Shown piece by piece: positions 51,001 to 54,000 of a stretch of DNA of 64,000 nucleotides (positions are counted from its first letter, which is position 1; each line of letters starts with the position of its first letter). Position numbers: made by a program. This stretch comes from Escherichia coli (GTDB taxonomy: Bacteria; Pseudomonadota; Gammaproteobacteria; Enterobacterales; Enterobacteriaceae). The DNA lies in the NCBI RefSeq assembly GCF_030013595.1, contig NZ_CP122768.1. The stretch is one strand, 5' to 3'.

Positions 51001-54000
51001 GTGGGGTCGTAGAAGTAATCCGTTTCCCCCCGCCGGCTGTGCCGCGTCTTCAGCAGTTCATCCTCGCCACTGTAGCTGTACTGCCGGTCCGTGAACGTCT
51101 CCGGTACCACCCCGCGCATCCCGCTGTATGTCTCCCTGCGCTTCAGCCGCCCGCCGGGGTCGTAAAGCTACCGCGTGCTCAGTCGCCCCTGGCTTCTGAG
51201 CACTTCACGGTGCAGGGCGTCACGTGTGAACTCGCTGATGACCTCCCGGTCCAGATTTATCTGCTGGAGATGGCCGCTGCCGTAGTACAGATGACGCTGC
51301 GTTCTGCCGTCCGGAAAGGTGGTGGCTGTCCGGTTGCTGAGTTCATCGTACTGATGGGTCAGGACGCCCTGCGCCGTCTCCTCAGTCAGCATCCGCCCCA
51401 GTCTGTCGTAACTGAAGCGGATAATCTCCGGTGCGTCTGTTTCCCCGGCATCCGACCGTCGGCGGCGGATTTCCAGTAGCTGGTCTGCCGCATCATGGAC
51501 GTATTCCGTACGGCTATCGGCTGTCTCCTTTGCCGTAAGCCGGCCCGCCGCATCACGTGCCAGCCGATGGCGGATTTCACCGCCCCGGTCCCCGGTGAAC
51601 ACCACTTCCGTGACCGCGTTCAGCGCGTTGTAGCGGTACGTCTGGCGGCAGCCGTCCGGATTTATCTGCTCCGCCAGACGGTCCAGCACATCATGGCGGA
51701 ACCGGTAGCTTTCTCCGTTCTCGTTTGTCAGCGTGACCAGACGCCCGTAAGCATCGTACCCGAATGCCGTCCTGCGCCCCGTCGCGTCCGTCCGGCTGCG
51801 CACCCGGCCCTGCCCGTCCCGCTGCCAGCGCGTTATCCTCCCCATCGGGCTGGTGTACTTCACCAGCCTGCCCGCCGCGTCCGACTGGTAATTCACCGTG
51901 CGGCCGTCCGCCAGTATCACCTCCGTCAGGTGGCCGCTGTCGTCATACCCGTAGCGCGTGCTGTGGCTCTGCGCGTCTGTCATCCGTATCAGCCGCGTGC
52001 GTTCGTCGTAGAACCAGGCCGTCTGCGAGCCGGAACAGTCCGTGTGCCGCATGAGCTGCCCGTCTTCGTTCCACTGAAGGTATTTATTCCCCCCGCGCGC
52101 ATCGGTTATCTGCACCACCTGGCCGTGGCGGTCATACTGATACCGGGTGTTCTGCTGCAGCGGGTCGGTCACCGCAAGAAGATTGCCGCGTTCATCGTAC
52201 TCACAGCACCAGCTGTTCCCCGCCGCGTCCACCTCCGTTTCCGGCTGGTGCCACACCGGGTGCCACTGTGTCTGTGCCACCCGCCCCAGCGGGTCGTGCG
52301 TCTCCGTGATATGCCCCTGCCGGTCATACACATAGCGCCATTTGCCGCCCTGCGCATCGGTCATTCCCAGTAACAGCCGTTCTTCGTCGCTCCAGCGGAA
52401 CGTCGTCACCTGCCCGGCTTCGTCCTGGTACGCCGTCACCTGGTTCTGCGCGTCCCACTGATGATAACGCGTGCGCCCCAGCCCGTCCGTCACGCACAGC
52501 CTGCGTGACGCCAGGCTCCACGCCAGCCGGTACTGTTCACCGCTGTCCGTGTGGTGCCCCGTCACCCGCCACGCTGCGTCATCCGGGCCTTCATACCAGC
52601 CCCACTGGTAATAATACCCTTCGCCGCCCGGCTGGCGGTGCAGGGTCATGCAGTGGTTTTCGTCGTAAGCAAACTCGCGCAGCAGGTGTCCCGTGCTGTC
52701 GTACACGCCGTTCAGGTCGCCGGCCTCGTCATAGCGGTAACGACGCAGCAGTAAAGGAGCCGTCTCAGGGAAATGCTGATAAATCTGTGTCACCCGCCGG
52801 GGATGCGCCGCCAGTTCATAATGCAGACGGATGCACGGACGCTGCTGTTCACCGCTGATTTGCGTGATGCGCCCCAGCTCGTCGTAGTACAGATTCAGAC
52901 AGTTGCTGTTGCGGTCGCCCAGCATTTTCAGCCGCTGGCGCTGCGGGTGATGCGGGTCGGCCTCAAACAGAAAAAACTGCCCGTCATCGCTGCTGATAAG
53001 CCAGTGCCCCTGCTCACCCCGCCTTACCGCCAGTCCTTCGCCGGGGCTGTAAAACCCGCTCCCCGGCAGCACGGCCTCCATATCCAGGCGTCGTCCCATG
53101 CCCGACACAAAGGTCATACAGTTTTCGTCAGCAGTACCCGGCGTGCGCTCGAGGCTGACTTCATACATCACGCTCCAGCCCTGCCCGAACATCCCTTCCG
53201 TGCGGTCGTCACGACTGCTGTACACGCGCTGCCAGTCCAGCGGAAAGTGGCCCGGCAGACTGAAATCGAAGTCATCGTCATCCGCCAGATATTTGGCTCC
53301 GGTGGCGGCATTGACCGGATGCGGAAGGGCACTGATGGCCTTCTGCGTCATCACCCCCATCCCGACACTGGCAGCAAAACAGGCGATTTTAGAAAGCATT
53401 TTGCCCGGGCGAAGAAACATCAGCGCCACAGTTGCCACCAGGGTTATCTGCGACCTGCCGCTTCTGATATCCCTGACCACCAGTAACGGACCGCCAATGC
53501 GGACATCCGGTGACACAAACGCCCCGTTCCCCGGCTCATTCACCACCCAGGCCTCGCAGGTGCAGCGTGCCCCGCTGCGTGCCGCCGGCTGGCTGTTGAT
53601 ACGCACATCCCGCGCGCCTTCCGCGATATATTCCGCTGCGGGCGGTTCATCATCGCCTTTGAACAGATTACTGATGCTGCCAATAACCGCATTCACTCCC
53701 TGAAAGGCGGTTTCCAGCATACCGCCCGGACTCAGCAGGTTAAGGGCCGTTCCCAGAGGGTCATCCAGAAAGGCGGCTTTTTTTTGTGCGAGAAACTGCG
53801 TCAGTGAGGAGGGATGTTTATGGCAGTCGATTTTATCGTCAGGGGTCGGGGTGGAGCCCGGGGCCGCACTGGCCACGGTGGGCTGCCATAGTTCCGACAC
53901 AAAATGTGTCACGCCATCCACCATTTCAGAACGCCCTTCTTCCGTACTGAGCTGGTCATGCAGCGCCCGGGACATCAGCACAGGCCCTGTCACCGGGTTA

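Follow-up and report, generated by a model that had tools for sequence, protein, structure and literature searches.

Two in-frame amber codons in a vgrG-linked Rhs effector gene of Escherichia coli: a probable recent loss-of-function allele

We consider a stretch of 64,000 nucleotides of Escherichia coli DNA (contig NZ_CP122768.1, referred to here as the window) in which a gene of the Rhs family is interrupted by two in-frame TAG codons. The reading that we favor, and hold with good confidence, is that of a very recent loss-of-function allele of a T6SS effector gene, i.e., an ordinary nonsense pseudogene and not a recoding signal. In its relatives, the whole effector gene consists of 1559 codons plus a stop and corresponds to positions 49824..54503 on the minus strand of the window. 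The first stop (amber 1, 51168..51170, minus strand), located from the translation and the DNA of relatives, replaces codon 1112 CAG (Gln) with TAG. The second (amber 2, 49872..49874, minus strand), located from the DNA of relatives, replaces codon 1544 AAG (Lys) with TAG at a distance of 2 nt from a GATC.

The minus-strand TAG of amber 1 is found at 51170-51168 (where the plus strand has 'cta') and it separates two ORFs that, according to the ORF list, are both on the minus strand and share a common frame: an N-terminal ORF of 1111 aa (51168..54503) and a downstream ORF of 415 aa (49872..51119). When 49872-54503 is translated straight through, the product reads ...RSQGRLSTR*LYDPGGRLKRRETYSG.... 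An earlier note on this DNA had claimed that an in-frame amber splits one Rhs gene into products of 1111 and 415 aa, and the TAG, the common frame and the translation it quoted are all as it described. The two halves both align to a single protein in relatives (1548 aa in NZ_CM149870.1, 1559 aa in NZ_CP062824.1); we are therefore dealing with a genuine interruption of one rhs gene, and not with two ORFs that happen to be neighbors.

For the domain analysis, both internal stops are replaced by the residues of the relatives, and the repaired protein of 1559 aa has the same length as the 1559-aa proteins of two relatives (L002 and L014). The sequence AARQGDALLH at residues 7-16 fits the prePAAR motif AARxxDxxxH, which was defined along with the architecture of the class I prePAAR Rhs effectors (PMC7773334). 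The sole hydrophobic region of the repaired protein (Kyte-Doolittle) covers residues 18-77, giving a single TMD region before the putative PAAR domain. The Pfam PAAR_motif model matches partially at residues 291-321 (E=3.7e-4) and very weakly at 97-118, and PF05488 hits are precomputed for homologues. The protein further contains DUF6531 (residues 395-473), ten YD_repeat_2x stretches accompanied by many Pfam RHS_repeat hits, an RHS domain (1333-1369) and the Rhs-associated core TIGR03696 (1360-1437). Two DPxGL sequences (DPIGL at residue 1411, DPLGL at 1433) and a Tox-HNH-EHHH toxin tip (Pfam, 1482-1557) are encoded 3' of amber 1. The best match among solved structures is RhsA of P. protegens (7Q97, E=0), which extends over residues 289-1453. 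According to this layout, the 1111-aa ORF holds the prePAAR motif, the TMD, a putative PAAR, DUF6531 and some 70% of the YD shell, while the 415-aa ORF, starting from the internal Met1129, holds the remainder of the shell, the RHS/Rhs-associated core with DPxGL and a clipped HNH toxin. The domain layout, with its putative PAAR, thus agrees with the earlier deduction that the N-terminal product retains prePAAR/PAAR and most of the YD shell and loses both the DPxGL site and the toxin tip.

Upstream of rhs are an Eag-type chaperone gene (DcrB/DUF1795, 150 aa, 54522..54974, minus strand; Pfam PF08786, E=1.1e-18), which is intact and has no differences from relatives within the gene at 54522-54974, and an intact VgrG spike gene (664 aa, 55025..57019, minus strand; TIGR03361, 555 bits against a cutoff of 186). 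Downstream is an intact ORF of 144 aa (49400..49834, minus strand), the putative cognate immunity gene, whose ATG overlaps the true end of rhs. This ORF has zero family matches, and it adjoins the HNH toxin module in every genome locus inspected. T6SS core genes are absent from the 64-kb window. Taken on its sequence and surroundings, the gene is assigned to the vgrG-linked, Eag-chaperoned class I prePAAR Rhs effectors with an HNH/EndoVII toxin tip; its repaired length of 1559 aa is also above the ~1200 aa expected of the YD-repeat proteins in this class. The label 'RhsE-type', which the gene had been given before, is right for the chromosomal neighborhood (ansP, yncE ... ydcC, nhoA), which we take to be the location of rhsE in K-12. 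It is wrong for the protein family, for the repaired protein reaches only 326 bits with the NF041261 equivalog against a cutoff of 2000 and lies outside the classical RhsA-E core family.

The next question is which codon preceded amber 1. Codon 1112 is CAG in HCP5S3_I2 (NZ_CM149870.1), NZ_CP062824.1, CP057738.1 and GCA_030346565.1, and the corresponding residue in protein homologues is Gln in 17 (reaching as far as a 79%-identical Salmonella protein), Arg in 2 (~70% identity) and Tyr in none. Judged from these comparisons, amber 1 arose when a C-to-T transition in the coding strand turned the CAG of Gln1112 into TAG. The earlier note had supposed that the original codon was Tyr, and this is contradicted by both the DNA of the relatives and the residues of the homologues. 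Its companion claim was that the stop falls in a YxYD-type repeat; Pfam calls no RHS_repeat across residue 1112, although a degenerate YD-like motif, '(Q)LYDPGGRL', is discernible at amber 1. A methylation hotspot can be discarded as the cause of amber 1, with a site context of GGCAGC and not CCWGG. The context GCAGCT is common to amber 1 and the amber in narZ (see below); with two sites only, we treat this as coincidence.

Amber 2 was overlooked in the earlier note. The TAG at 49872-49874, which closes the 415-aa ORF, is itself premature, lying 15 codons short of the true stop at 49824-49826. Codon 1544 is AAG (Lys) in HCP5S3_I2, CP062824 and GCA_030346565.1, which makes amber 2 an A-to-T change (AAG to TAG). 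The intact 1559-aa gene of CP062824 runs on past codon 1544 as ...YQKINDPVTKDHHIYYEN, and its stop at 49824-49826 overlaps the start of the immunity gene. The toxin match in Pfam runs up to residue 1557, so amber 2 trims the Tox-HNH-EHHH domain and takes away its last 15 residues.

We search for the two TAG alleles in complete E. coli genomes that have the region, using 81-mers centered on each stop. There is no perfect match to the TAG-bearing 81-mer of amber 1 in any of 119 complete genomes (226 places), nor to that of amber 2 in 71 complete E. coli genomes, and for both ambers the best matches all differ by one mismatch. A 31-mer with the TAG of amber 1 is likewise absent from metagenome contigs. 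Look-ups of the exact 1111-aa and 415-aa products give zero matches, which is weak evidence since the NCBI annotation drops the products of pseudogenes (as an example of such a dropped product, narZ is absent from the gene lists of two clade members, L030 and L033). The homologues have neither a stop nor a domain boundary at codon 1112, and the split is accordingly not challenged by any natural boundary of the kind that the earlier note had named as a refutation. Conservation of TAG at codon 1112 among homologues, as expected of programmed UAG recoding, is not found either.

The comparison with close relatives indicates how recent the two stops are. Over its full extent, the window shares 99.9% identity with E. 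coli HCP5S3_I2 (NZ_CM149870.1), in which one Rhs CDS of intact length is found. Orthologues at the same locus have 98.7-99.9% DNA identity and the same toxin-immunity pair (e.g., WP_195714911.1 in NZ_CP062824.1, 1559 aa). The nearest relative for which the DNA is compared is GCA_030346565.1 (L021). Over the 5.6-kb stretch containing eag, rhs and the immunity gene, it differs from the window by bases at 54978, 51170 and 49874 only, and by a 116-bp deletion of its own. On the 3' side of amber 1 the window and GCA_030346565.1 are the same save for amber 2, so the event that gave amber 1 is recent. With both stops absent from every relative examined, the Rhs ambers are, on the DNA available for comparison, private to this sequence and very recent.

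The same relatives carry other lesions of the locus. In GCA_030346565.1, the 116-bp deletion lies between CGGACGG direct repeats and leaves Rhs as two pieces of 898 aa and 621 aa. A -1 frameshift common to HCP5S3_I2 and CP057738 (CCC to CC, at 49948-49950 of the window) falls directly before the PHAH catalytic motif, and in further genomes either a large deletion is present or nothing but an orphan toxin-immunity module remains. These lesions indicate that the vgrG-eag-rhs module is repeatedly inactivated by differing, independent events inside a narrow clade of E. coli. Ten more loci, reached via the Eag protein, include several multiply frameshifted Rhs genes; we set these aside as examples of natural decay, as they may reflect poor assemblies.

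Gene-by-gene comparison gives a total of four in-frame TAGs in three genes of the window: yddB (codon 86), narZ (codon 1043) and Rhs (codons 1112 and 1544). The window also has fdnG, with its known selenocysteine TGA. The earlier note had rightly counted the Rhs gene as the third in the window with an in-frame TAG; the differing histories of the three genes had escaped it. In yddB, codon 86 is changed from CAG to TAG (1141..1143, plus strand) at an ancestral Dcm site, CCAGG. This amber is absent from 4421 complete genomes, and it is identical in L025 and L026, the carriers being independent draft/Logan assemblies that match the window at 100% identity along 6.5-7 kb. In L024, L026 and L027 the gene calls give yddB as two pieces, 85 aa and 684 aa, and the gene has been hit independently in a sister strain (W322 to TAG). 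In narZ, codon 1043 is changed from CAG to TAG (40901..40903, plus strand), and the amber is present in the clade members L029, L030 and L033 as well as in 204 complete genomes, among which the inspected copy (M217) is annotated 'internal stop'. The flanks of narZ in M217 differ by 3.6% from the window and identity is limited to 40834-40990, which does not support a long recombination tract as the source of the narZ amber; for its sharing with M217, recurrent mutation and conversion over a very short tract are the two candidates. Both the yddB amber and the narZ amber are clade-level alleles, older and seen in independent assemblies, and only the Rhs ambers are private. We therefore reject the idea of a single 'amber syndrome' affecting the three genes.

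Strain-polymorphic CAG-to-TAG alleles are known, such as rpoS(Am) in K-12, as are amber alleles at Dcm sites. The window resembles these cases in its CAG-to-TAG transitions, with the yddB amber having arisen at CCAGG, and Rhs amber 1 is unlike the Dcm-site ambers in its GGCAGC context. In contrast to K-12 alleles of the rpoS(Am) type, we know of no suppressor for this strain.

The number of stops can be compared with a neutral expectation. When the differences from HCP5S3_I2 are polarized with an outgroup, 18 derived substitutions are assigned to the lineage of the window. A neutral simulation with those mutation classes gives an expected 0.84 stops and 0.37 TAGs, with a probability of 4e-4 for at least four TAGs. 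Two of the four TAGs in the window are older shared alleles, yet the anomaly stays locally in the Rhs stretch, where two of the three private base changes in 5.6 kb make stops (a chance of ~0.002 for TAG and ~0.009 for any stop, both from the per-class rates of the neutral simulation, and both post hoc and based on very few events). The excess of stops in this stretch could stem from selection for loss of the toxin, from consensus error, from coincidence or from something else.

Consensus error deserves attention in its own right, as a sequencing or assembly artefact would mean that the true genome has CAG and/or AAG and that the gene is intact or has one stop only. Long-read consensus errors concentrate at Dam/Dcm motifs and A-runs. 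Position 49874 is 2 nt from a GATC (a Dam site), and other private differences of the window are at such error-prone sites (40407, CCAGG to CTAGG, a Dcm site; 41507, a run of A6 to A7); Dcm sites and A-runs are also natural hotspots of mutation. That both Rhs ambers are unique to this sequence fits an artefact as well, as do the near-identical Rhs paralogues (median of 3 places per genome), which can mislead polishing. Against an artefact, position 51170 is outside known methylation motifs and homopolymers, and no paralogue in the 119 genomes has a TAG here that could be the source of mis-mapped reads. Moreover, elsewhere in the window there are many kb that match independent assemblies at 100% identity (1-7121 with L025; zero private differences in 11462-31893), so the assembly is generally accurate. 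We regard an artefact as unlikely.

All five nonsense lesions in this lineage and its sister (yddB Q86, narZ Q1043, Rhs Q1112, Rhs K1544, and yddB W322 of the sister) are TAG, with zero TAA or TGA. At an expected TAG share of ~0.44, five out of five has a probability of ~0.016, and CAG to TAG accounts for three of the five. An amber-suppressor tRNA in the strain (e.g., a supE-like Gln suppressor, restoring the wild-type residue at 1112) would yield a reduced amount of full-length Rhs and allow amber alleles to be tolerated in the lineage. We find this very improbable. Suppression cannot make ambers more numerous than neutrality predicts, and it is this neutral level that is exceeded here; a Gln suppressor would also place Gln at codon 1544, where the relatives have Lys. 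The 64-kb window is free of tRNA genes. Of 5426 complete genomes, 154 have an allele of the supE44 type, and the 40 among the matches listed are all K-12 laboratory derivatives. The clade-level ambers also sit in genes that are inactivated elsewhere, narZ as a pseudogene in other lineages and yddB independently in the sister. Just as doubtful to us is the broader notion that the amber-only lesions reflect a natural suppressor background, with low-level Rhs and a gene that is not dead, or its variant, in which the toxin is silenced in two selected steps.

A natural two-gene arrangement, in which amber 1 is a real boundary and the 415-aa ORF is a separately initiated protein with the shell end, autoprotease and toxin, can point to the AGGGAG upstream of Met1129 and to the small subset of prePAAR effectors that naturally consist of two ORFs (PMC7773334), but we give it almost no credence: the natural splits that have been described part prePAAR-TMD-PAAR from Rhs and are not located mid-shell (PMC7773334), the homologues have no stop or boundary at codon 1112, the arrangement is private to one sequence, the 415-aa ORF carries a premature stop too, and the AGGGAG is a weak, badly spaced SD-like element, 12 nt upstream of the ATG. 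With this poor SD spacing and with no secretion determinant, the downstream ORF is unlikely to matter.

Returning to the nonsense pseudogene, we can outline what the loss would entail. In P. protegens RhsA, the cocoon is sealed by a conserved C-terminal region made up of 14 Rhs repeats, which spirals into it, and the toxin inside is set free by an aspartyl autoprotease (PMC8765631). Cleavage-deficient variants of Photorhabdus Rhs1 lack toxicity (PMC8636562). By analogy, the YD-repeat cocoon of the intact protein here would enclose a C-terminal nuclease of the HNH/EndoVII fold, and the DPxGL aspartyl autoprotease would free it. Translation of the allele in the window should end at codon 1112 and give a 1111-aa fragment with the prePAAR motif, TMD, putative PAAR, plug and some 70% of the shell. 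This fragment would be without the last quarter of the shell, with the C-terminal repeats that seal the cocoon, without the autoprotease and without the toxin. We infer that it would be non-functional in toxin delivery, and it is probably unstable. The early termination may also uncouple the overlapping start of the immunity gene. The strain should then no longer deliver the HNH toxin, yet it retains the immunity gene, and the locus may be under relaxed selection or under selection for loss. In E. cloacae, Rhs is reported to be necessary for T6SS assembly, as relayed in PMC8636562 from its ref. 22.

Several known systems can serve as a comparison. P. protegens RhsA (7Q97), studied with EagR1 and VgrG1 (PMC8765631, PMC7773334), has the same prePAAR motif, single TMD, cocoon, autoprotease region, Eag and vgrG, along with a PAAR that is putative here, and it differs from the protein here in that the toxin tip here is Tox-HNH-EHHH and that the two ambers leave the seal, autoprotease and toxin untranslated. 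The intact E. coli orthologues (WP_195714911.1) are at the same locus and differ by having CAG at codon 1112 and AAG at codon 1544. The rhsE gene of E. coli K-12 we take to be an inactive remnant of the classical RhsA-E core family between ansP/yncE and ydcC (ISAs1 H-repeat). The two share the neighborhood and an inactive Rhs gene, and unlike K-12 rhsE, the gene here has the prePAAR/Eag/VgrG architecture and is inactivated by point mutation, not by truncation. The naturally split prePAAR effectors (PMC7773334) likewise have the loading module and the toxin part in separate ORFs. Their splits lie between PAAR and Rhs and recur across genomes, whereas the break here is inside the YD shell and occurs in one sequence.

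The proper annotation of the locus is then a single rhs pseudogene interrupted by two stops, and not two genes. As a strain-private nonsense pseudogene in a well-understood effector family, it is ordinary. An amber-only pattern that extended over the whole genome would make it worth looking for a natural suppressor tRNA. For the organism, the finding means that this strain is probably unable to deliver this HNH nuclease toxin while it is still immune to it, and the repeated loss of the module is in line with the fast turnover known for polymorphic toxin loci.

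We begin with the prePAAR Rhs effector pseudogene (49824..54503, minus strand), which carries a second in-frame amber besides the one at Q1112 (51168-51170). This second stop, AAG (Lys1544) to TAG at 49872-49874 on the minus strand, precedes the true stop (49824-49826) by 15 codons, lies 2 nt away from a GATC Dam site, and is private to the window sequence. When the vgrG-eag-rhs module is compared with that of GCA_030346565.1, the closest relative whose DNA was compared, the sole private difference besides the Rhs ambers is at 54978, a C-to-T change (coding strand) that is located 4 nt 5' of the eag chaperone ATG. 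Directly 3' of the immunity gene are a SymE-family type I toxin gene (49015-49344) and a transposase gene of ISAs1 (ydcC, H-repeat; 47727-48863), an arrangement like that of other Rhs loci; SymE copies in other genomes again adjoin orphan toxin modules.

We turn to narZ, in which the Q1043 amber (40901-40903) is also found in the clade members and in 204 complete genomes. In the one copy inspected among these complete genomes, the flanks of the amber are 3.6% divergent from the window, and the two sequences are identical only from 40834 to 40990. The clade and the inspected genome therefore share one nonsense change on two backgrounds, and this can be accounted for by either recurrent mutation or micro-conversion. 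Two further differences, both private to the window, fall in the already dead narZ: a CCAGG Dcm site carries a C-to-T change (40407, in the 3' part of narZ, giving P878L), and an A6 run just 5' of the narH ATG is longer by one A (41501-41507). Dcm sites and A-runs are natural mutation hotspots, and they are also typical locations of long-read consensus error. Around the narZ Q1043 amber (40896-40906) and the Rhs Q1112 amber (51165-51175), the hexamer in which the stop arose is identical, G-CAG-CT (GCAGCT), and does not form a Dcm site; as just two sites share it, this is probably a coincidence.

The yddB Q86 amber (1141-1143), for which a CCAGG Dcm site is the origin, is common to the clade of draft assemblies. 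In the sister strain HCP5S3_I2 (NZ_CM149870.1), codon 322 of yddB, aligned to window 1849-1851, is changed from TGG to TAG, and yddB has been knocked out independently in HCP5S3_I2 and in the window lineage. The in-frame TGA at fdnG codon 196 (30174-30176, minus strand), present in the window and the reference alike, is not a lesion but the codon known to specify selenocysteine in formate dehydrogenase-N. The sister strain has lost 9 bp from the yddM-fdnI spacer (window 26140-26148) and carries an IS200/IS605 insertion between ompC and a leucine-rich-repeat gene (window ~33272), an insertion that the window is without.

The Rhs genes of the relatives have lesions of their own. HCP5S3_I2 and CP057738 encode an Rhs of "intact" length (1548 aa), the toxin C-terminus of which is scrambled: within the Tox-HNH-EHHH domain, shortly before the PHAH motif, CCC has become CC, a -1 frameshift; the window keeps the unshifted CCC at this site (49948-49950). 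Near the core/tip junction, a cluster of eight differences between the window and HCP5S3_I2 (50454-50646), with the derived state in HCP5S3_I2 and not in the window, resembles a short tract of gene conversion by an Rhs paralogue. In GCA_030346565.1, a 116-bp deletion within the YD-repeat region (corresponding to window ~51795-51910), flanked by CGGACGG direct repeats, leaves the Rhs in two pieces of 898 aa and 621 aa, and this is a third independent Rhs lesion in the clade.
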